Assembly: GCA_902555055.1 (NCBI GenBank)
Contig: CACDQN010000004.1
Coordinates: 11,514 to 75,513, forward strand
DNA: 64,000 bases
Reading direction: 5' to 3'
Source of the DNA: an uncultured Candidatus Actinomarina sp.
Lineage (GTDB): Bacteria > Actinomycetota > Acidimicrobiia > Actinomarinales > Actinomarinaceae
Below are positions 17,996 through 26,997 of the stretch, one piece after another. The position numbers and the translations under genes were made by a program. The first letter of the stretch is position 1, and every line of letters begins with the position of its first letter. The notes beneath the pieces are model-generated. The model worked only from the letters and a program-made list of their open reading frames with translations. It had not been told where the DNA came from and ran no database searches.

Positions 17996-18364
17996 TTAAT
18001 TTTCTTGTTCTTCCTTTTCAATCTGTTCTTGTTCAAATCTATTTAAAGCCAATAAAAACATGATGAATAAAATTGTGGAACCTATAAGAAATGTTAGTGG
18101 GAGGATTCTTATCTCAAAAGCATTCAGGCCATCAATACTTGCTGGAGCTGGACCTCTTGGAGCATAAAGTAAAAACAAAATCGAATTAATTACTAACCAG
18201 CCAAATGTGCCAGCACCTGTTATCAAAAATGCTAATCTCTTACCTACATTTGTAGCATTAAGTAAAAATGTAGAGCCTAAGAATACAACCAAAGAGCCGG
18301 CGAACATAATAATTCCGGTAACTGTTAAGTTAGATGAAAGTAGTGATCTCATTATTTCACGCAT
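17996..18364 (-). CDS. Hypothetical 4-TM membrane protein in the respiratory operon
   Basis: 122 aa. Its ATG overlaps the cytochrome c stop (ATGCGTGA), and its stop abuts the NfeD start. Confidence 0.55.
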   Translation of the reverse strand: MREIMRSLLSSNLTVTGIIMFAGSLVVFLGSTFLLNATNVGKRLAFLITGAGTFGWLVINSILFLLYAPRGPAPASIDGLNAFEIRILPLTFLIGSTILFIMFLLALNRFEQEQIEKEEQEN

Positions 18365-19781
18365 CTTGTTTCAATCCTCTCAAATAATCAATAATCAAAG
18401 CGATGTCAGATTCTGGCAGTACTGCACCAAATCCGGGCATTTTACCTCCACCTACTCCGTTAACTCCGTAAGCTTTACCATTAACAGAGCCCTTAACAAT
18501 AAAGTCTATCATGTCTTCTCTTTGCTTAAACTGAATATTGGCTCTTCCAGCTCTTAAAGCAGGTCCTAAACCTCCAGAACCTATTTCTTTTGTATAAGCA
18601 ACGCCTGCAGAATAACCTGCGGTGTGACACCTAGCACAATAAGCATTAAACAATCCTATAGCTCTTTTAGCCTTGTCAATATCACCATCGAAAGTAGAGT
18701 CAGCAATCTCTTCAAAAGATACTTCCCAGAGTTTTTCTTCAAGAGCTTTTTCTAAAAATGCTAAGCCTGTCTCAGCTTCACCTAAGAATTTATCATATCC
18801 ATCTGCAACAATTCTTATATTGATAAGCTCTGATTCAAGCTGAGATAGAAATCCGTTTGCAACAGATTTATCTTTTCTTCCAGGAATTGACTCTTCATTA
18901 TCTGGATCTAAATTAAGTATTGAAGTACCAAGAACCTCATTAATATTTGCACTATAAGTAGATATATCAACCTCAACTGAGTCTGTTAAACCATCTTCAT
19001 CAGTATCAATACCACCTTCTTTAGAAAGTAAGGCTGAAACATCAGTTACTGCTTTTTCTAAAACTGGTAATTTAGAAGGGGCGTCTTTGACACTTTGAAT
19101 TAATTCTTTTTGTCTAGCAATTTCATTTTCAACTAAGAGTTCAGAAGTTTCGAGTCTTAGTAAAGAGCTGTTTATACTCATTTCGATAGTAGACAGTTCA
19201 TCATTTTGAGAAATTTGGAAGTGATGGAGGTATTCAATCAAATCATCTAGTTGTCCATCATTCATTGGACCACCTCCGTCTAGACCCCAGGCAGGCATAG
19301 GAGAGTTTGCTCTTCCCCAAATAAGCCAGTATCTTACTTCTTCATCATCGTATCTGTAGAAAACATTGTTAATAGCTGGAGCTTCCCATGTTACGTTTAT
19401 GCCACTTCTTTTTTCAACGTAAGATGCAGCACCTCCAGAGCCATCAACGCCGTGACAATTTCCACAACCAAACTCTTCATATAGGTGCTCTCCACGTTCT
19501 ATAGAAACTTCATCAAACTCTTCAACAAATCCTTCTTGTCTTGTCTCTTCTCCAAGGTAGTAAAGAGGAATCATGATTGTTAGAAGTGATGCAACTAAAA
19601 CGGCTACAGTTAAAGTTCTATCAAGAGTTTTAGTTTCTAAGTCATCATCAGTTCTGTATTTTGTTAAGTTTGGTGCATAATCTGAAACTTTTCCGGAGCC
19701 TCTAAAACCGGCAGAAACAAAAAAAGCAAGACCGCCAGTTAAGCCTAACGCAATAAGTGTAATGAGAATTGAACTACTCAC
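18357..19781 (-). CDS. Membrane-anchored dihaem c-type cytochrome (QcrC-like, enlarged)
   Basis: Two CxxCH motifs (CGNCH, CARCH), each followed by a Met-Pro block (SPMPAWG, GKMPGFG). N-terminal TM. A long non-haem insert separates the two haem domains. Confidence 0.85.
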   Translation of the reverse strand: MSSSILITLIALGLTGGLAFFVSAGFRGSGKVSDYAPNLTKYRTDDDLETKTLDRTLTVAVLVASLLTIMIPLYYLGEETRQEGFVEEFDEVSIERGEHLYEEFGCGNCHGVDGSGGAASYVEKRSGINVTWEAPAINNVFYRYDDEEVRYWLIWGRANSPMPAWGLDGGGPMNDGQLDDLIEYLHHFQISQNDELSTIEMSINSSLLRLETSELLVENEIARQKELIQSVKDAPSKLPVLEKAVTDVSALLSKEGGIDTDEDGLTDSVEVDISTYSANINEVLGTSILNLDPDNEESIPGRKDKSVANGFLSQLESELINIRIVADGYDKFLGEAETGLAFLEKALEEKLWEVSFEEIADSTFDGDIDKAKRAIGLFNAYCARCHTAGYSAGVAYTKEIGSGGLGPALRAGRANIQFKQREDMIDFIVKGSVNGKAYGVNGVGGGKMPGFGAVLPESDIALIIDYLRGLKQDA

Positions 19782-19784
19782 TTA

Positions 19785-20648
19785 TTATTCCTCTGTAGTT
19801 AAAGCTATACAAGATAAGCCTTGAGGGTATTTAACAGACATACCTGGAGCTCTAGGTGATTCAATAATTGTTCCTGTGTCAATAATGAATCTTCCGTTTA
19901 CATTTGAAACATTAAACCTATCTAAATTTCTAGGGGCAGGTCCAGCAAAATATTCTCCTACCATGTTGTATTTTGAACCATGACATGGACACTCAAATCC
20001 TTGAGATGAATTACACCAGGGCACCCTACATCCAAGATGAACACATCTTTGATAAACAGCTACTAAACCATCTGCAACTGTTGAGCCAGATGAAAATTGA
20101 GAATTAGCAGCAGCAGTTTGATCTAATGGAAGAACATAAGCTCTTGCAGATGGAATAAAAGCTGGAATGACTGATCCATCAGCTTGAAATAATTGATCTT
20201 TAATTTCTTCAATTGAGCCCGCATCAATTTTAGAACCAAAGCCTCCTGAGACTTTTGGCCATAAAAATCCAAGCCATGAAATTGCTTGAATACCTGCAAA
20301 AGCTCCAAAAGAAATTCTCAGAGCTTTAGTTAAAAACTGTCTTCTTGTTACTCCAGCTTCCTCTTCAGATATTTCTTCATAGATAACCTTCTCTTCAAGC
20401 TTTACAGCACCATCGGACTCCCCAGCTGGTTCTTCAATCTCATCAACTACTGTCTCTGTTTCACCTTTAGGTAAGTCTGGTTCAAGAAAATTAGTTTGTG
20501 ATTTATCTTCTTTTAAAGCTTTTTTATCAACATTCTTTTTCCAATTAAGATTTTTTGGTCCACGTCCTGTAACTATAACGACAATACCAATAATGCTTAG
20601 TAGTCCTACTGCAGTAAAAGCTGCAAAAGATAACTGAACTATACTCAT
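19785..20648 (-). CDS. Rieske [2Fe-2S] subunit of a bc-type complex
   Basis: CVHLGC and CPCHGS boxes. Internal twin-arginine motif [10 protein letters not shown] preceded by an extra TM and an acidic linker. The probable ATG at 20648 forms an ATGA overlap with the upstream gene (the track uses a TTG at 20663). Confidence 0.9.
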
Positions 20649-21535
20649 TCGAAATGTATCCAATCAAGTAGGTCATCAAACCAGATACCGTCAATCCATG
20701 GATATACCCAGTTCCAGCCTGGACCTCTAAAAAGAACACCTATAATTGTTAAGGTTCCAGCCCCTGCTAAAAAGAACGTGTAAAACATAATTGCAAATTT
20801 TCTCTTTGAAGGATGTGTTTCAGGATTTCTATCTATGTAAGGAAATGCCATCCAAAGTATCAAGCCTACAACTGTTGGAATCATCACTCCAGCTATTTGT
20901 GGGTCCCAATATGACAACATCTCTTGAAGTCCTAAAAAATACCAAGGCGCTTTTGCTGGGTTAGGTGTTACGTTAGGGTTAGCCTCCTCTAACAAAGGAG
21001 CTTGTAAAATTGCTGATAAAAATATTAAGAATGCTGTCATTGCCATAAGTGCAACAAATTCTGGAAGCATTAAGTGAGGCCAAGTGTTAACTTTATCAAT
21101 TGGTTCTTTAACAGGTTTCTGAATTGGCTTGGCTTTAACAACAGTTAGCAATCGTTGTGTTACTTTTACTTCTGGTGCAAAATCAACTTCATCAGGTGCA
21201 TCTGCTTTGGCAGGAGGAGGGGGTTTTGCTGCTGCAGGTTTTTCATCAATTTTTACAGCTGCCACCTTTTCAGTTGTTTCTGCAGCATGCTCTTCTTTTA
21301 TCGGAGTTATAGTCTCTGCTGCTGGGGCTGGGGCTGAAGTCTCAGGTGGTGGAGCTGGGGTCTCTGCTGTTGGAGTTGGAGTCTCGTCAATTACTTTTAC
21401 TTCTGGTTCTTTTGATATGACTGTTGGGTCTGATTGACCTTTCATCTCAGCCATAGCCTGTTCAATACTTATACCAAGAGCTTTAGCTCTAGCTTCTGCT
21501 GATCTCTGCAACAAATGTTCTGGGATATCTACCAT
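20645..21535 (-). CDS. Cytochrome b C-terminal part (subunit IV-like) with an N-terminal extension
   Basis: The C-terminal half has 3-4 TM and an [12 protein letters not shown] block aligning with the PEWYF Qo motif. The N-terminus carries a QRSAEARA module plus a Pro/Ala/Glu/Thr-rich linker. Confidence 0.85.
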
Positions 21536-21542
21536 GATGCCT

Positions 21543-22316
21543 TTATAAAGGTCCTGATATTCCGCCGTCTTTTCTTACTCTCCAGAAATGAACAGCCATG
21601 AATATAACGATTATGAATGGGAAAAAGAGAACATGTAAAACATAAAATCTTAATAAAGTCGCAGTTGTAGCCTCAAGTCCTGCAAATAAACCAAACTTAA
21701 CCTGTGCACCCACAACGGGGACATAGCCAGCCATATTACCTCCTACTGTTACAGCCCAAATAGCTAACTGGTCCCAAGGTAATAAATAACCTGTAAATGA
21801 AAGAAGCAAGGTAAGAAGTAGCAAAATTACTCCAATAACCCAGTTGAATTCTCTTGGAGCTTTGTAAGCACCATGATAGAAAACACGAGACATATGTAAG
21901 AAGACAACTAGAACCATTAAGTGAGCTCCCCACCTATGCATGTTTCTCACTAATGAACCAAAAGCAATAGTTGTTTGAAGATTTTGTATGTCAACATAAG
22001 CTAGTTCAGTAGGTCGGAAATAAAACATCAACCAAATACCTGTAATGGTTAAAACGATGAACAAGAAAAAACTGAGTCCACCTAAGCAGAGAGTATAAGA
22101 TAACCTCACACCATGTCTTTTAACTTTAACTGGATGTAGGTGATACAAAACGTTGTTCATGACAACATATGATCTATTTCTTGGACTGTCTACATAACCT
22201 TTTCTAAATGGTGAACCTGGGCGAAAAATACTAGACATAAGTTTTCCACCTCTAAAGCCATCACTAGCTTTTGCTCTGGTTTCTTTTAACCTATCTCTAA
22301 ATGACATTTTCTGCAT
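21543..22316 (-). CDS. Cytochrome b N-terminal part (b6-like, 4 TM)
   Basis: 257 aa. Haem-ligand His pairs in RNMHRWGAHLMVLVVFLHM and FYVLHVLFFPFIIVIFMAVHFW. Confidence 0.9.
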   Translation of the reverse strand: MQKMSFRDRLKETRAKASDGFRGGKLMSSIFRPGSPFRKGYVDSPRNRSYVVMNNVLYHLHPVKVKRHGVRLSYTLCLGGLSFFLFIVLTITGIWLMFYFRPTELAYVDIQNLQTTIAFGSLVRNMHRWGAHLMVLVVFLHMSRVFYHGAYKAPREFNWVIGVILLLLTLLLSFTGYLLPWDQLAIWAVTVGGNMAGYVPVVGAQVKFGLFAGLEATTATLLRFYVLHVLFFPFIIVIFMAVHFWRVRKDGGISGPL

Positions 22317-22325
22317 TATATTATT

Positions 22326-22772
22326 TTATAGCCTTCCATATATATAACCATGCCTGTCACTTCTTTGGCCAGAATCTTCTTCCCATGGAGCGGTATATAA
22401 ACCATTTTCAACAGCTTGGTCTGCTAAAGATCCTGCAAATTTTCCAAGTGAGATAACTCCCGTAGGACACCTGTCAACACAGAGAGCACATCTTGTACAT
22501 GCTTCTTCATCTACAACAAAGAATCCTGTTGATTCACTTGCATCAGGTGACTCAACATTAATTGAATCTTCAATTGCATCAACTGACAAATAGTGAATAC
22601 ATTTCCATGGACATATATCTACACATCCCTCACATAAGATACATTCAGATTCGTCAATGTGTAGAAATTGTTTTGGCCTAACTCTTGATGAAACTTTTTC
22701 AGCATCAACCATTGCAAGATTGTATTTCTTTTCAAAATCTGGCATCTCAATAAGTACTTCGGATTTAGCCAT
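22326..22772 (-). CDS. 2x[4Fe-4S] ferredoxin-domain protein
   Basis: CILCEGCVDICP and CTRCALCVDRCP cluster motifs. The probable ATG at 22772 overlaps the upstream stop by 8 nt (the track uses a TTG at 22781). Confidence 0.85.
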   Translation of the reverse strand: MAKSEVLIEMPDFEKKYNLAMVDAEKVSSRVRPKQFLHIDESECILCEGCVDICPWKCIHYLSVDAIEDSINVESPDASESTGFFVVDEEACTRCALCVDRCPTGVISLGKFAGSLADQAVENGLYTAPWEEDSGQRSDRHGYIYGRL

Positions 22773-23358
22773 CTTGGTCAACCCTCACAACTTCTTTTCC
22801 ATAGTCTGAAATTCTTGATTTTGAAGATTCGATTTTATCATTGATATCTTGAATCAAATATGCAACAACACAGCCAGCTATAAGAAAGTTGGTAGAAATT
22901 CCAGCTTGTATAATGTCTTTTAAAGCCCCAAGGCTTAGACCAATTTCATTATTTAAAAATAGAATCGGAGGAAAGTTGATAAACTCTCTTTGACCTGTCC
23001 ACTCAAGAGGACCTTGAGCAAGGTTTAACCATTCTGAAGGAACTATGCCTAATAATATGGCCATCTCAATCCAGACTATGAATGAAAAATAAGTAGCTTT
23101 TGCCCAAGTTAATTCTTTTTGATTCCAGACAACAAGTACCATACCAAGAAGTAGTAACTGGCTTGCTCCAAATGCCAAAAGTTGCCCGATAGTTTGAGGT
23201 AACCAACCACGAGGCATCCAATTGAAATAATCTATAAATTCTCCTTCAGGAAAGCCAGCGAAGTGGGCTATGAGTACACCGATAGTCATACCGCCAATGC
23301 CAGAAACAATTGAGATAAAACCTATTCTGTATCTAAATTTATAAATTGTGTATATCAA
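22765..23358 (-). CDS. Hypothetical polytopic membrane protein, first gene of the respiratory operon
   Basis: 197 aa, about 5 TM. No family recognised. Overlaps the ferredoxin gene. Confidence 0.55.
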   Translation of the reverse strand: MIYTIYKFRYRIGFISIVSGIGGMTIGVLIAHFAGFPEGEFIDYFNWMPRGWLPQTIGQLLAFGASQLLLLGMVLVVWNQKELTWAKATYFSFIVWIEMAILLGIVPSEWLNLAQGPLEWTGQREFINFPPILFLNNEIGLSLGALKDIIQAGISTNFLIAGCVVAYLIQDINDKIESSKSRISDYGKEVVRVDQDG

Positions 23359-23505
23359 ATTTCCTCAAACCTTACCTATATATAATATCGTATGTTGGGG
23401 ACAAATTATAAATTGATTAGATATCTTTTTTTAAAAATTTTCAACATTACCAAGCCACTTTTTTCCAATATAATAGTAAAGTCATAGTGAATATTTACTA
23501 AATAT

Positions 23506-24897
23506 ATGAAACTTAAGTTAATTCCAAAAAATGAACAAGAGCTTTCAAAACTTTTTGTTTTGATTTTTCCACTAACTCTTCTTTTGTCATCCCTTTTTAC
23601 GTTCCTTAAAGATTCATACTTCACATTTGCAAATTTACTGCCAAACAATCAAATCTTTAATTATGGATTTTTAGATCGCGTAAGCACGAAAGCAAGTTTT
23701 GGGTTAGTTTTTGCCACAATAATTTGTTTAACATTTGCATATCTATTCTCAAAATCTCTGGGACGTGTTGCAGTTTTGTTCCCATTATTATTCCTAACTT
23801 TACTTGGATTCATAGGCACTGAATTTTTAGATATTATTCTTAGCTTTTTTTATCAGGATAATTTAAACATAACTGGCAGTATTTCTATTGTAATTTTATT
23901 AAAAATTCTGGTTGCATTCGGATTATTTGGTCTTGCTTCTCTTAATTTATTAGCAAAGAAGGAAACTACTATATTTGCGAGTGCTCAATTTATTTATGGG
24001 GCTGTGGTCTTCTACTTCTTATCATTACTAATAGCTAGAAGTGAATTGATCGTTTTTACTGACTCTCTTTTAATAACTTCTTTATATACTTCAACCCACA
24101 TATATGTAGCATTCTCATTTATCTATCTTGCAATTATTCACTTTCTAATGACGAAACCTATTGATGCCACACTTTTCAGTAAGACCCTGTCTTCAATTAC
24201 TTTCTGGGGGTTCTTGTTTTTACTTCCATGGACTAGTTATAAATATTATTTTGGATCAGTTCTACCAAACTGGTTAGAAAATGTATCTATATATCTTTCT
24301 TTAAGTCTAATTATTCCTTTACTGGCATTTGCTGTTAACTACGTAAAAACAACTCAAACACGAGAAATTGACATGAACAAATCTGCTAATCTCATGAATT
24401 TTTCAGTTATTCTATTTTTAATAACAAATGTACTTCATATAGTTTCTAGCTTTGAAAACTTACTTCCATTAGTTGGTTTAACAAACTTTCAAAATGTTAT
24501 ATCTCATGGCTATTTTGGTTCTCTTGTTTTAGCTTCTGTTTCTCTAAGCTATTATTTAATTCCTAAACTATTTGGAAGATCTGTAAAGTATTCATTATTA
24601 GAAAATCTAATATTTGGTGGATTTAAATTAACATACCTATTTCTTTTGGTAAATAACTTTTTAATAGGTGTCAATTCTGGATATTCATGGAATGCAGCAG
24701 CGAATGCGGGGAGTCCAGCTATCTACGGAGAGGGTTTCAACATAGTTTGGAATTTAGTCGGAATAAATTACTCAGCAAATACATTTATTTCATTGTTATT
24801 TCTTGGCGTATCAACATTGTTTTTCATATCAATAATTAGGTCAATTAGTTCTGGAGATATTACAACTGTTGAAGAAATGGTTTTTAGTAATGAGTGA
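23506..24897 (+). CDS. Haem-copper oxidase subunit I (cbb3 CcoN)-like polytopic protein lacking most canonical His ligands
   Basis: 463 aa, about 12 TM. Blocks ITFWGFLFLLPWTSYKYYFGSVLPNW and ISHGYFGSLVLASVSLSYYLIPKLFGRS align with CcoN helix 7 and helix 10-11 as recalled. There are only 4 His in the whole protein. Followed by a CcoO-like gene. Confidence 0.6.
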   Translation: MKLKLIPKNEQELSKLFVLIFPLTLLLSSLFTFLKDSYFTFANLLPNNQIFNYGFLDRVSTKASFGLVFATIICLTFAYLFSKSLGRVAVLFPLLFLTLLGFIGTEFLDIILSFFYQDNLNITGSISIVILLKILVAFGLFGLASLNLLAKKETTIFASAQFIYGAVVFYFLSLLIARSELIVFTDSLLITSLYTSTHIYVAFSFIYLAIIHFLMTKPIDATLFSKTLSSITFWGFLFLLPWTSYKYYFGSVLPNWLENVSIYLSLSLIIPLLAFAVNYVKTTQTREIDMNKSANLMNFSVILFLITNVLHIVSSFENLLPLVGLTNFQNVISHGYFGSLVLASVSLSYYLIPKLFGRSVKYSLLENLIFGGFKLTYLFLLVNNFLIGVNSGYSWNAAANAGSPAIYGEGFNIVWNLVGINYSANTFISLLFLGVSTLFFISIIRSISSGDITTVEEMVFSNE

Positions 24898-25636
24898 GTT
24901 AGTTAATAAAGTAGCAGAAATACTTAATGCTCCAATAGATCTAGTCCAAAGATCAGCCGAAGCAAGAGCAGCTGCATCAGGTAAGTCTGTAGATGAAGTT
25001 CTCAGTTCTTGGGCTGGTGGAGAAAGTATAGAATCTACAGCACCAGTTGAAGAGACTCCAGTTGAAGAGACTCCTGTTGAAGAGACTCCAGTTGAAGAGA
25101 CTCCAGTTGAAGAAGTGGTTCAAGAAGTAGTAGAAGAATTAGTAGATCTAAAAAATGAGAGCTCGTTAGCATTCATTTCAGGTGTACTGTCAATTGCAGT
25201 GTTTACATTTGTATTTGCATTTTTAATTCCTAAAAATCAATCAATAAGGATTGTTGAAAGCTCGTTGAACAACACTATAAGTGTTTCTGCTGACGTAATA
25301 AAAGGTGCAGAAATTTATAGTGAGCTAAACTGCCAGTCTTGCCATACACAAAATGTAAGAACTCTTATTCCAGATACTCAAAATGGAAAAGTTTTAAGTA
25401 ATAAATATGCGAATAAAGCATTGATAAAGAATATTGGAAATATTCGACTTGGGCCAGATTTGTCAACTAATAGTCTCCGAGAACCTACAAACAATGCACA
25501 ATGGTTAGGTCGATATTTAACTGATTCATCATCTGTTAATAGAGAAATACCTCATCCTAACTATGAATTTCTTGATGATCAGGATTTGGACTACCTCGTA
25601 ACTTATTTACTATCATTAGGAGAGCCAAATGAGTGA
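24890..25636 (+). CDS. Monohaem c-type cytochrome, cbb3 CcoO-like, with an N-terminal QRSAEARA module
   Basis: GAEIYSELNCQSCHTQNVR and IRLGPDL resemble the CcoO haem and RxGPDL blocks. One TM. Probable ATG at 24890 (MSELVNK, the same start as the next gene), which overlaps the upstream stop as ATGAGTGA. Confidence 0.7.
   Translation: MSELVNKVAEILNAPIDLVQRSAEARAAASGKSVDEVLSSWAGGESIESTAPVEETPVEETPVEETPVEETPVEEVVQEVVEELVDLKNESSLAFISGVLSIAVFTFVFAFLIPKNQSIRIVESSLNNTISVSADVIKGAEIYSELNCQSCHTQNVRTLIPDTQNGKVLSNKYANKALIKNIGNIRLGPDLSTNSLREPTNNAQWLGRYLTDSSSVNREIPHPNYEFLDDQDLDYLVTYLLSLGEPNE
25043..25113 (+). repeat. In-frame 15-nt tandem repeat (about 4.7 copies) encoding (PVEET)n
   Basis: ccagttgaagagact repeated head-to-tail from 25043. 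One synonymous variant (cctgtt). Confidence 0.9.
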
Positions 25637-26564
25637 GTTAGTCAATAAAGTAGCTGAATTATTAAACGCACCAGTAGACCTAGTACAGAGATCTGCTGAA
25701 GCAAGGGCTGCTGCATCAGGTAAGTCTGTAGATGAAGTTCTCAGTTCTTGGGCTGGTGGAGAAAGTATAGAAGCTTCAGCGCCAGTTGCTGAAACTCCAA
25801 AAGAGGAAGCGCCAGTTGCTGAAACTCCAAAAGAGGAAGCGCCAGTTACTGAAACCCCAAAAGAGGAAGCGCCAGTTACTGAAACCCCAAAAGAAACCAT
25901 TGCTGCTGCTGTAACTCAAAAAATTACAAATTCTTATTCAGTTATTAATGAAACAATGGGAATAAAAACTAACTCAGATACACTTCTGCCTAAATGGTTA
26001 AATTTTAGCTTTATAATTATTCCTCTATTTATATTGGTTGGATTAATTAGTTCTTCCAACACTCAAGAGTGTGGAGAAAGAGGTATGTTGAATATTGATA
26101 GAAAATCCCAACAGGCTGTTAATTGTGATGGTTCTCCATACGAAGGTAGAGGAGTTGCTTCAACAAACACTATCAACTACATTGCACTTGGACAAGAGGT
26201 ATATGCAGGAGCTGCTGCATGTGCTGGATGTCATGGCGGCGGTGGTGGTGGAGGTGTTGGGCCAGCATTTACAGGTGGTGCGCTTTATACAACCTTTCCA
26301 ACATGTGCAGATCATGCCAAGTGGATACAGCTAGGTTCTGCAGGATGGCAAGCAGAAGTGGGGCCAACGTACGGGGCAGAAGATACAGTATCTATTGGAG
26401 GTATGCCCGGATTTCAAGGAAAACTTACTGAAGATGAATTATACGCAGTTGTAGTTTTTGAAAGAGTTGTTTTTGGTGGAGGAAATACTGAAGAAGTATT
26501 GACCGATTGTGGTCTTCTCGAAACTGAAGAAGAGGAAGTCACAACCGAAGCGATTAGTCCATAG
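25629..26564 (+). CDS. Membrane-anchored class I c-type cytochrome (CcoP-like monohaem) with an N-terminal QRSAEARA module
   Basis: CAGCH haem motif, GGMPGF Met block, LTEDELYAVVVFERV. One TM. Its start overlaps the upstream stop as ATGAGTGA. Confidence 0.8.
   Translation: MSELVNKVAELLNAPVDLVQRSAEARAAASGKSVDEVLSSWAGGESIEASAPVAETPKEEAPVAETPKEEAPVTETPKEEAPVTETPKETIAAAVTQKITNSYSVINETMGIKTNSDTLLPKWLNFSFIIIPLFILVGLISSSNTQECGERGMLNIDRKSQQAVNCDGSPYEGRGVASTNTINYIALGQEVYAGAAACAGCHGGGGGGGVGPAFTGGALYTTFPTCADHAKWIQLGSAGWQAEVGPTYGAEDTVSIGGMPGFQGKLTEDELYAVVVFERVVFGGGNTEEVLTDCGLLETEEEEVTTEAISP
25779..25894 (+). repeat. In-frame 30-nt tandem repeat (about 4 copies) encoding (APVAETPKEE)n
   Basis: gcgccagttgctgaaactccaaaagaggaa repeated. 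Copies 3-4 carry gct-to-act and act-to-acc changes. Confidence 0.9.
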
Positions 26565-26571
26565 TTCACAA

Positions 26572-26997
26572 ATGAAAAAATTTTCATTTTTGTATATATT
26601 TGCTTTCTTTGATGGCCTAGGAGTAGCCTCTGGAGCACTAATTGGATTCTTTTTTCCACAGATTGTATCTGATATTTTTGGAGCTAATTTTCAAACGAAT
26701 GATTTAATATGGTTTAAGTTTGTGCTACTCCCCGGTTTTGCAATAAATGTTTTGTATATGTTTTTTGCAATTTCAAAAAATAGACCTGCAATTCTTTTAT
26801 CCAATATTTTAAGAATATTAACAACTATTGGTTTTGTAATTATGTGGAGTGAAGCAGTTGTTTTAAGGTCTTTACTTAATTTAATGATAATTCATCATAT
26901 TGCATTTATATCAGCGACATTTGTCCTATATTTTAAAAAAGATAAAACCAAAGAAGATGAAATATCAAGTGAAAAAGAATTTCTACAAGAAAACTAG
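26572..26997 (+). CDS. Hypothetical 4-TM membrane protein, last gene of the oxidase-like operon
   Basis: The track ORF starts at 26509, inside the upstream gene. The Met at 26572 (MKKFSFLYIFAFF) starts 8 nt after the upstream stop. Confidence 0.5.
   Translation: MKKFSFLYIFAFFDGLGVASGALIGFFFPQIVSDIFGANFQTNDLIWFKFVLLPGFAINVLYMFFAISKNRPAILLSNILRILTTIGFVIMWSEAVVLRSLLNLMIIHHIAFISATFVLYFKKDKTKEDEISSEKEFLQEN

Follow-up and report, generated by a model that had tools for sequence, protein, structure and literature searches.

A ligand-poor homologue of the cbb3 oxidase subunit CcoN is conserved next to complex III genes in Candidatus Actinomarina and related bacteria

What can a gene contribute to a respiratory chain when it resembles ccoN, which encodes the catalytic subunit of cbb3-type cytochrome c oxidases, and specifies hardly any of the histidines that hold haem and copper in such enzymes? 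The question is raised by a gene located at positions 23506–24897 (+) of a 64,000-nucleotide stretch of DNA from an uncultured Candidatus Actinomarina sp. (GenBank assembly GCA_902555055.1, contig CACDQN010000004.1, positions 11,514 to 75,513), hereafter referred to as the window. The open reading frame (ORF) starts with ATG, is uninterrupted and encodes a protein of 463 amino acid residues with about 12 predicted transmembrane helices and His solely at positions 198, 212, 311 and 334, as the initial annotation of the window had counted. We named this CcoN homologue without ligands pseudo-CcoN. Judged by sequence comparison, it belongs to what we propose to be a pseudo-enzyme branch of the C-family of haem-copper oxidases (HCO), one that is ligand-poor, evolves under purifying selection and occupies a conserved genetic context.

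Scores obtained with the single sequence were weak. Pfam COX1 (PF00115) gave 31.4 bits, below its cut-off of 34.8, the TIGR00780 ccoN model gave 31 bits for a cut-off of 583, and phmmer against the PDB retrieved the CcoN chain 3mk7_A with E = 9e-10. A profile–profile alignment carried out with hhalign between pseudo-CcoN plus 18 relatives and six canonical CcoN sequences reached a probability of 100% (E = 3.5e-66) over 446 columns. The AlphaFold2 model, computed from the alignment of pseudo-CcoN and its relatives, has about 12 long transmembrane helices, a predicted local distance difference test (pLDDT) value of 86.8 and a predicted template modelling (TM) score (pTM) of 0.90. Foldseek ranked CcoN chains of the PDB first (3mk7, 8smr, 9g6b, 6xkw and 9g83; TM 0.84–0.86, 14–16% identity), NorB next and A/B-type subunit I thereafter; the match to 3mk7 CcoN has a TM of 0.86 at 14–15% identity. 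By profile–profile alignment and by the AlphaFold/Foldseek comparison, pseudo-CcoN is a true CcoN-fold homologue despite its weak single-sequence scores, and at the family level the homology supported by the profiles and the model is unambiguous and full-length, as the first description of a CcoN-like core had anticipated. Membership in an unrelated transporter family is ruled out by the same fold and profile matches. The helix-end motifs YGR, PRLxG, FW, P-x-W and PK-x-GR are kept as in CcoN, and the Actinomarina type ends with a family-specific cytoplasmic tail, RxxSSGxxxxxExxV. The closest loci in a collection of species-level genomes come from Actinomarina single-cell and metagenome genomes (59–95% protein identity), and a profile search of a set of 5.8 billion proteins returned almost solely the same close Actinomarina relatives.

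We mapped the cofactor ligands by means of the hhalign profile alignment, using the residue numbers of P. stutzeri CcoN. The haem b ligand H60 corresponds to S60, the CuB ligands H207, H257 and H258 to S196, K246 and Y247, the cross-linked Y251 to L240, and H345, the proximal His of the high-spin haem b3, to I332; H347, a ligand of the low-spin haem b, is the only one matched by a His (H334). Substitutions thus affect five of six ligand positions as well as the cross-linked Tyr, with a register that is uncertain by a few residues at the 14–25% identity of these alignments: phmmer places H334 on H345 rather than on H347, and in both alignments just one ligand column contains a His. H198 was considered as a shifted CuB ligand and rejected, being two residues out of register with the H207 column and not kept beyond the order. 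The same columns were counted in 26 distinct Actinomarinales orthologues with 50–100% identity. Each of these proteins has between one and four His altogether, and none of the columns is His throughout; the column of H334 is His in this strain only (Tyr in 16, Gln in 8, Phe in 1), the proximal position of haem b3 is Ile or Val in 26 of 26, and the low-spin haem positions are highly variable. The His columns of NorB from the cytochrome c-dependent nitric oxide reductase (cNOR) are the same as those of CcoN and are likewise lost. The blocks read by eye in the initial annotation (ITFWGF..KY.., YGFLDRVSTKA and VISHGYFGS) were all correct, and its statement that the canonical haem and CuB set cannot be bound holds for the whole lineage. 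These alignments leave pseudo-CcoN unable to bind haem b, haem b3 and CuB in the canonical way, from which we infer that the real protein lacks these cofactors.

Is the gene simply decaying? A pseudogene whose frame is still open would explain both the disappearance of all catalytic residues and the Pfam and TIGRFAM scores below threshold, and frequent frameshifts among orthologues would be its expected mark. The ratio of non-synonymous to synonymous substitution rates (dN/dS), calculated by the method of Nei and Gojobori for pairs with unsaturated dS (0.16–0.87), is 0.035–0.076 for the CcoN-like gene, to be compared with 0.005–0.04 for cytochrome b6, 0.04–0.06 for the Rieske protein, 0.07–0.11 for the CcoO-like protein and 0.03–0.06 for a 197-residue membrane protein, all encoded nearby. 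Orthologue matches in 37 other loci, some of them overlapping, consist of a single uninterrupted alignment each, mostly full length or ended by the edge of the locus, over the whole range of 50–100% identity. The exception is one genome, a polished long-read metagenome-assembled genome (MAG; JAYQSV010000001.1, loci L006/L159), in which the frame changes near codon 217, probably as the result of an assembly error rather than of decay. The gene is also maintained in a streamlined genome of about 1 Mb, and homologues are kept across a class and in a second phylum. The substitution pattern thus indicates that pseudo-CcoN is under purifying selection and not decaying, in agreement with the conservation first suspected, and a pseudogene can be dismissed with near certainty.

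Ligand loss extends well beyond Actinomarina. A HMMER search of 1.8 billion representative proteins returned 129 relatives, and every name given to them in the databases (JGI, NCBI) is “cbb3-type cytochrome c oxidase subunit I”. Among the 65 full-length relatives that were aligned, 7 are canonical (HHYHHHH) and the rest are devoid of most or all of the ligands, the ligand columns of the ligand-poor and high-GC relatives being mostly Ala, Gly or Ser. A rough neighbour-joining tree, which is a distance sketch only, resolved four groups: the canonical CcoN proteins with a few paralogues that lack CuB ligands; a high-GC clade with no ligands, found by its source names in Acidimicrobiia (MBK5266846.1) and including five natural CcoN-CcoO fusions (P0154, P0166, P0212, P0217 and P0243; related proteins are given P numbers and related loci L numbers); a third clade retaining 0 to 4 of the 6 His, found in Verrucomicrobiota and Opitutales (MBI5388581.1, MEX2381372.1); and the long-branched Actinomarinales. 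In the third clade, the gene lies directly after actABCDEF, which encodes alternative complex III (ACIII), and is followed by a FixO-like gene (P0149, P0185; L009/L010, L135) and, where the contig continues (L009), by a cytochrome c gene. In view of this distribution, the loss of ligands is ancient and family-wide, affecting the class Acidimicrobiia and a separate clade of Verrucomicrobiota, and is not the peculiarity of one genome.

Several members of the wider family have features of their own. The ACIII-linked clade (P0149, P0155, P0192, P0199, P0228, P0233; L009, L135) has Cys-rich cytoplasmic tails, for instance ARACCADLCGCG, RCCRACC and RCCGNCC, which are absent from pseudo-CcoN proteins of the Actinomarina type. 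The gene for the ligand-free protein P0160 (L134) comes immediately after ResB/CcsA, which are genes of cytochrome c maturation; behind it are encoded a short FixO of 165 residues and then a protein of 61 residues matching only the N-terminal membrane part of CcoP, an organization that looks like a further stage of cbb3 reduction. Within the canonical cluster, P0239, P0247 and P0215 keep some or most haem His and have lost at least one CuB ligand, together with the cross-linked Tyr in P0239 and P0247. Because these three proteins lie within that cluster, partial loss of the active site seems to have occurred more than once.

The operon of pseudo-CcoN encodes two membrane-anchored cytochromes c. 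The first is a CcoO/FixO-like monohaem protein (24890–25636, +; PF02433 FixO, 33 bits, above the cut-off) whose gene overlaps the end of pseudo-CcoN by 8 nt (ATGAGTGA, 24890–24897). This overlap is common among the orthologous loci, in 26 of 26 of which a CcoO-like gene stands 3′ of pseudo-CcoN on the same strand. The predicted protein carries CQSCH and RLGPDL, and alignment to CcoO chains of the PDB puts the His of IPHPNY at the position of the distal Met ligand. CQSCH and (I/V)PHPxY are kept in 30 of 31 Actinomarinales orthologue matches, so that the haem c of this protein is probably His/His-ligated in the order; Met is retained in L007, L009 and L134, and high-GC and ACIII-linked relatives read SLMPSF, SIMPSY or STMPHY at this block. 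The translational coupling within a conserved operon, the two haem motifs and the tentative reading of IPHPNY put forward in the initial annotation have all stood up to this comparison. Its assignment of the third gene to CcoP has not. This gene (25629–26564, +; PF13442, PF00034), which overlaps the stop of the CcoO-like gene by 8 nt, encodes a class I cytochrome c in which CAGCH occurs once and the Met ligand is that of GGMPGF, both motifs being conserved in 25 of 26 matches; TIGR00782 matches it with E = 0.03, and with one CxxCH the protein is monohaem and not a dihaem CcoP. An ORF located 3′ of the second cytochrome gene (26509–26997, +) specifies a hydrophobic protein that is conserved, probably resides in the membrane and matches no family. 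Its conservation begins at residue 19–22 or so, its true start is probably an ATG near 26572, and in L004/L145 its counterpart is encoded on the other strand; the ORF may thus lie outside the operon.

In 35 of 35 Actinomarinales loci, including those of orthologues with as little as 50% protein identity, pseudo-CcoN is transcribed divergently from a Rieske/cytochrome b6 operon, from which it is separated by a spacer of 145–156 nt. In the window, this intergenic region (23359–23505) contains back-to-back promoter-like sites at 23447–23474 (+) and 23434–23405 (−), sites of this kind being no more numerous than expected by chance over the region scanned, and the blocks TTTTATCG, TATAAAT and CTAAAGT are invariant among the loci. 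This conservation suggests that the spacer is a regulatory region shared by both operons. The first gene of the divergent operon (22765–23358, −) encodes the conserved 197-residue membrane protein, which carries the motif PSEWLNLxQGPLEWT, matches no Pfam or NCBIfam family and has orthologues reaching into the high-GC Acidimicrobiia. It is followed by genes for a 2×[4Fe-4S] ferredoxin-like subunit (22326–22781, −; PF00037 and related families), also present at this position in the high-GC loci L007 and L132; a cytochrome b6-type subunit corresponding to the N-terminal half of a split cytochrome b (21543–22316, −; PF00033, 148 bits); subunit IV, corresponding to the C-terminal half (20645–21535, −; PF00032); a Rieske iron–sulfur subunit (19785–20663, −; PF00355); a dihaem cytochrome c (CGNCH, CARCH; 18357–19781, −); and, last, a membrane protein of 122 residues (17996–18364, −), which has an orthologue of 120 residues at the same position in L007. 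The Qo motif of subunit IV reads APWY, as reported for the split cytochromes b of some deep-branching Actinobacteria (PMC4122944). An iron–sulfur subunit is unusual on a b6-type complex and may be an entry point for electrons on the cytoplasmic side. The same pair of divergent operons accompanies relatives of only 24–26% protein identity in high-GC Acidimicrobiia (L007, L132).

A further link between the two operons is provided by an N-terminal mini-domain of about 45 residues common to the CcoO-like protein, the second cytochrome c and subunit IV of the b6 complex. Its copies are encoded at 24890–25039, 25629–25778 and 21401–21535 (−) of the window and are also present in L007, L132, L133, L151, L155, L171 and L174, with the consensus …PExL(V/L)xRSAEARAxAxGxSV(D/E)xVL…. 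In the carriers, the mini-domain is followed by acidic Pro-rich repeats, (ETPVE)n in the CcoO-like protein and (APVxETPKEE)n in the second cytochrome, then by the membrane anchor. It is kept in high-GC Acidimicrobiia, twice in one subunit IV, and is absent from the ACIII-linked loci. AlphaFold2 predicts a confident three-helix bundle (pLDDT 84). Pfam reported only a sub-threshold match to DUF1805, a profile search of the PDB found nothing significant and Foldseek gave no hit with E < 1; kinship with the peripheral-subunit-binding domain of 2-oxoacid dehydrogenases, which we considered, was unsupported by all three. A DNA pattern for the motif matched 59 stretches in 185,579 species genomes, nearly all in Actinomarina or Acidimicrobiia, and uncovered a fourth type of carrier, the alpha subunit of a 2-oxoacid:ferredoxin oxidoreductase (POR, POR_N, PFOR_II), which is encoded at another place in Actinomarina genomes and has the motif in acidic extensions at its N- or C-terminus. 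The 5′ ends of the two cytochrome genes form a direct repeat of 220 nt with 82% identity (24889–25108 and 25628–25847). Because the N-termini of both cytochromes are nearly identical within each genome examined, gene conversion between these 5′ ends is suggested. Tandem repeats occupy 25022–25081 in the first cytochrome gene and 25761–25910, as units of 30 nt, in the second.

These observations lead us to propose that a non-catalytic cbb3 core persists as a scaffold in the membrane, supporting a cytochrome c relay that is bound to complex III (CIII), a proposal that we consider somewhat likelier to be right than wrong. Pseudo-CcoN would descend from the catalytic subunit of a cbb3 oxidase, having kept the 12-helix fold and lost the ligands and the cross-linked Tyr; given the loss of the ligands of haem b, haem b3 and CuB and of this Tyr, it should therefore reduce neither O2 nor NO. 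Selection would retain the structural half of the job of CcoN, that of a platform for the CcoO-like cytochrome and the second anchored cytochrome c. The cytochrome module would work with the adjoining quinol:cytochrome c oxidoreductase, Rieske/b6 here and ACIII in Verrucomicrobiota, most likely as a bound relay that carries electrons from complex III to a distinct terminal oxidase. The locus would thus be the fossil of a CIII-cbb3 supercomplex in which the oxidase is dead and the architecture has been kept. A pseudo-enzyme, scaffold or docking platform had been suggested at the outset, and such a role is favoured by the natural fusions, the invariable operon linkage to CIII or ACIII and the mini-domain shared with the b6 complex. 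The fold, the loss of conserved ligands, purifying selection, synteny, the coupling of CcoN to CcoO including the fusions, and the link to CIII or ACIII in two phyla are established; physical attachment to complex III, and the direction and acceptor of electron flow, are what we infer from them.

Several points weigh against this proposal. Cofactor loss is deduced from sequence alone, and haem could conceivably be ligated by residues other than His; among the 26 Actinomarinales orthologues, K246 is invariant and 81% have H198. The AlphaFold model may be biased towards the cbb3 structures of its training set. From general cytochrome chemistry, a His/His-ligated haem c would have a lower potential, which would be awkward for the CcoO-like protein as a relay to an oxidase. 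Finally, the target of the relay, a genuine oxidase encoded elsewhere in Actinomarina, is assumed. By eye, neither the window nor the flanking regions of the related loci contained a recognisable COX1, cyd or cox gene. DNA patterns for the ctaD motif WFFGHPEVY in AT-rich codons, and for the same motif with LPFFG, gave at least 120 matches each, those listed including SAR11/Rickettsiales for the former and freshwater Actinomycetia for the latter, and are uninformative on Actinomarina. Indirect support for such an oxidase comes from the literature: caa3 is reported beside “cbb3” in MAGs apparently belonging to Acidimicrobiia, judging from their place ahead of the Bacteroidota section and the mention of Acidimicrobiia elsewhere in the paper, coxABCD has been reported in the sister order UBA5794, and Actinomarinales are described as aerobic photoheterotrophs, some of them predicted haem auxotrophs.

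Could pseudo-CcoN still be a redox enzyme that uses Lys, Tyr, Met or its remaining His to bind haem or some other metal and that reduces O2, NO or another acceptor? The two c-type cytochromes kept in the operon do resemble an electron input line, Y247 joins K246 and H198 among the candidate ligands (Tyr in 23 of 26 orthologues and Phe in 3 of 26), and HCO families with altered ligands exist, a low-spin haem with His/Met or His/Lys ligation having been reported for nNOR and eNOR and a replacement of one active-site residue for gNOR. Beyond the order, though, K246 becomes Gln, Ala, Thr, Arg or Ser and H198 becomes Gln, Thr, Leu or Gly (P0124, P0143 and others). Considering also the uniformly Ile or Val proximal position of the catalytic haem, the variability of the low-spin haem positions, the orthologues with one His in the entire protein and the small residues that fill most ligand columns of the relatives, we regard an active enzyme as very improbable. 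The emptied scaffold might instead serve as an ion or proton conduit or a transporter, perhaps gated by the redox state of the cytochromes c, or accommodate quinone or lipid in the old haem pockets. Such a function would agree with purifying selection acting over the whole 12-helix bundle and not on surfaces alone, with the preserved fold and with the cavities that small residues could leave at the old ligand positions. It is rendered rather unlikely by the family alignment, which shows no series of polar or charged residues conserved within the membrane; the residues that never vary, Gly, Pro, Trp and Thr, lie in loops and at the ends of helices, and E317, equivalent to the channel residue E323 of the C-family, is lost in P0121, P0124 and high-GC members.

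An assembly, maturation or regulatory factor, such as a chaperone platform for the c-type cytochromes or the b6 complex, would account for the tight co-regulation with the b6 operon that the conserved shared spacer suggests and for the position of P0160 directly after ResB/CcsA. This maturation-gene context was seen only once, and covalent fusions to CcoO-like proteins together with translational coupling point to partners in 1:1 stoichiometry and not to a transient factor, making this role unlikely. A more ambitious extension of the scaffold would make the dead cbb3 core the hub of an unrecognised respiratory megacomplex of Acidimicrobiia, in which 2-oxoglutarate oxidation is wired into a membrane complex. 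The mini-domains, borne on long acidic linkers, would dock on one partner, for which the 2×[4Fe-4S] subunit and the cytoplasmic C-terminal tail of pseudo-CcoN are candidates, and electrons would pass from the ferredoxin-like subunit to the b6 complex, then to the c-cytochromes held by the pseudo-oxidase. We rate this arrangement as a fairly long shot; if true, electrons would enter a Rieske/b complex by a new route.

If the scaffold proposal is correct, the locus provides a clear case of a pseudo-enzyme within a respiratory chain, in which the chemistry of an oxidase core is gone and its architecture is what has been retained. It makes testable the physical organization of complex III or ACIII with its electron acceptors in both phyla, as well as the division of the HCO fold between parts required for assembly and parts required for catalysis. 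The ACIII-linked clade, whose members retain between 0 and 4 of the 6 His, is a natural series in which the death of an oxidase can be followed. There is also a practical consequence. In published studies, ccoN counts serve as a marker for high-affinity respiration at low oxygen, and Candidatus Actinomarina has been described as a widespread epipelagic lineage; with a ligand-free “ccoN” present in Actinomarina, throughout Acidimicrobiia and in some Verrucomicrobiota, such inferences would be inflated. Elsewhere in the window, the region from about 38000 to 64000 has a G+C content of 26–31%, compared to 32–39% for the remainder, and its ORFs, examined by eye, look like those for glycosyltransferases, sugar-nucleotide epimerases/dehydratases, aminotransferases and polytopic membrane proteins, a content that fits the flexible genomic island for envelope sugars described for Actinomarinales (PMC7771536).

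How does this system compare with those already known? The nearest is the CcoN-CcoO-CcoP module of cbb3 oxidases (PDB 3MK7/5DJQ), with which it shares the 12-helix CcoN fold (TM 0.86), the gene order of N, O and a further cytochrome c, and a CcoO-like partner with CxxCH and an RxGPDL block. It differs in that the family keeps none of the six ligand positions as a conserved His and no cross-linked Tyr, pseudo-CcoN scores far under the family cut-offs, the distal Met of CcoO is a His in Actinomarinales, the third subunit is monohaem instead of the dihaem CcoP, and both cytochromes have long cytoplasmic N-terminal extensions with the mini-domain; no ccoQ or ccoGHIS was seen near the pseudo-CcoN gene. 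Variant HCO families (eNOR, sNOR, gNOR, nNOR and NOD) belong to the same superfamily and have non-canonical active sites; in the accessible part of a survey of 12 HCO families (PMC11214002), they have single metal ligands altered, whereas here none of the six is kept as a conserved His, and no ligand-free branch is among the 12. Our literature search, the coverage of which was incomplete, found no description of ligand-free CcoN homologues, which is weak evidence of novelty.

Larger assemblies offer further parallels. The actinobacterial bcc-aa3 supercomplex of Mycobacterium and Corynebacterium occurs in the same phylum, likewise without an obvious soluble cytochrome c, and its complex III carries a dihaem cytochrome c that passes electrons within the complex, but it combines a fused QcrB with an active A-type oxidase and has no CcoN or CcoO homologue. 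In the bc1-cbb3 supercomplexes of R. capsulatus (6XKW) and P. aeruginosa (8SMR), a CcoN-fold subunit and c-type cytochromes are coupled to a Rieske/cytochrome b complex, as we propose here. The oxidase is active there and the core ligand-free here, the association being deduced in our case from synteny and the shared mini-domain only, with a b complex of the split b6 type that has an extra 2×[4Fe-4S] subunit. A last comparison concerns ACIII, for which a review describes the ACIII-aa3 supercomplex of Flavobacterium johnsoniae and the occurrence of ACIII beside a “C-type oxidase” in Verrucomicrobia. The genes for P0149 and P0185 likewise stand directly after actABCDEF and before a FixO-like gene, although the proteins of this clade differ from the Actinomarina type by their Cys-rich C-terminal tails and lack of the mini-domain. 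Since the ACIII-linked relatives examined are without all or most of the ligand His, they would not be the oxidase partner assumed in the literature, and at least some of the ACIII-adjacent “C-type oxidase” genes belong, as their ligand columns indicate, to the ligand-poor clade.

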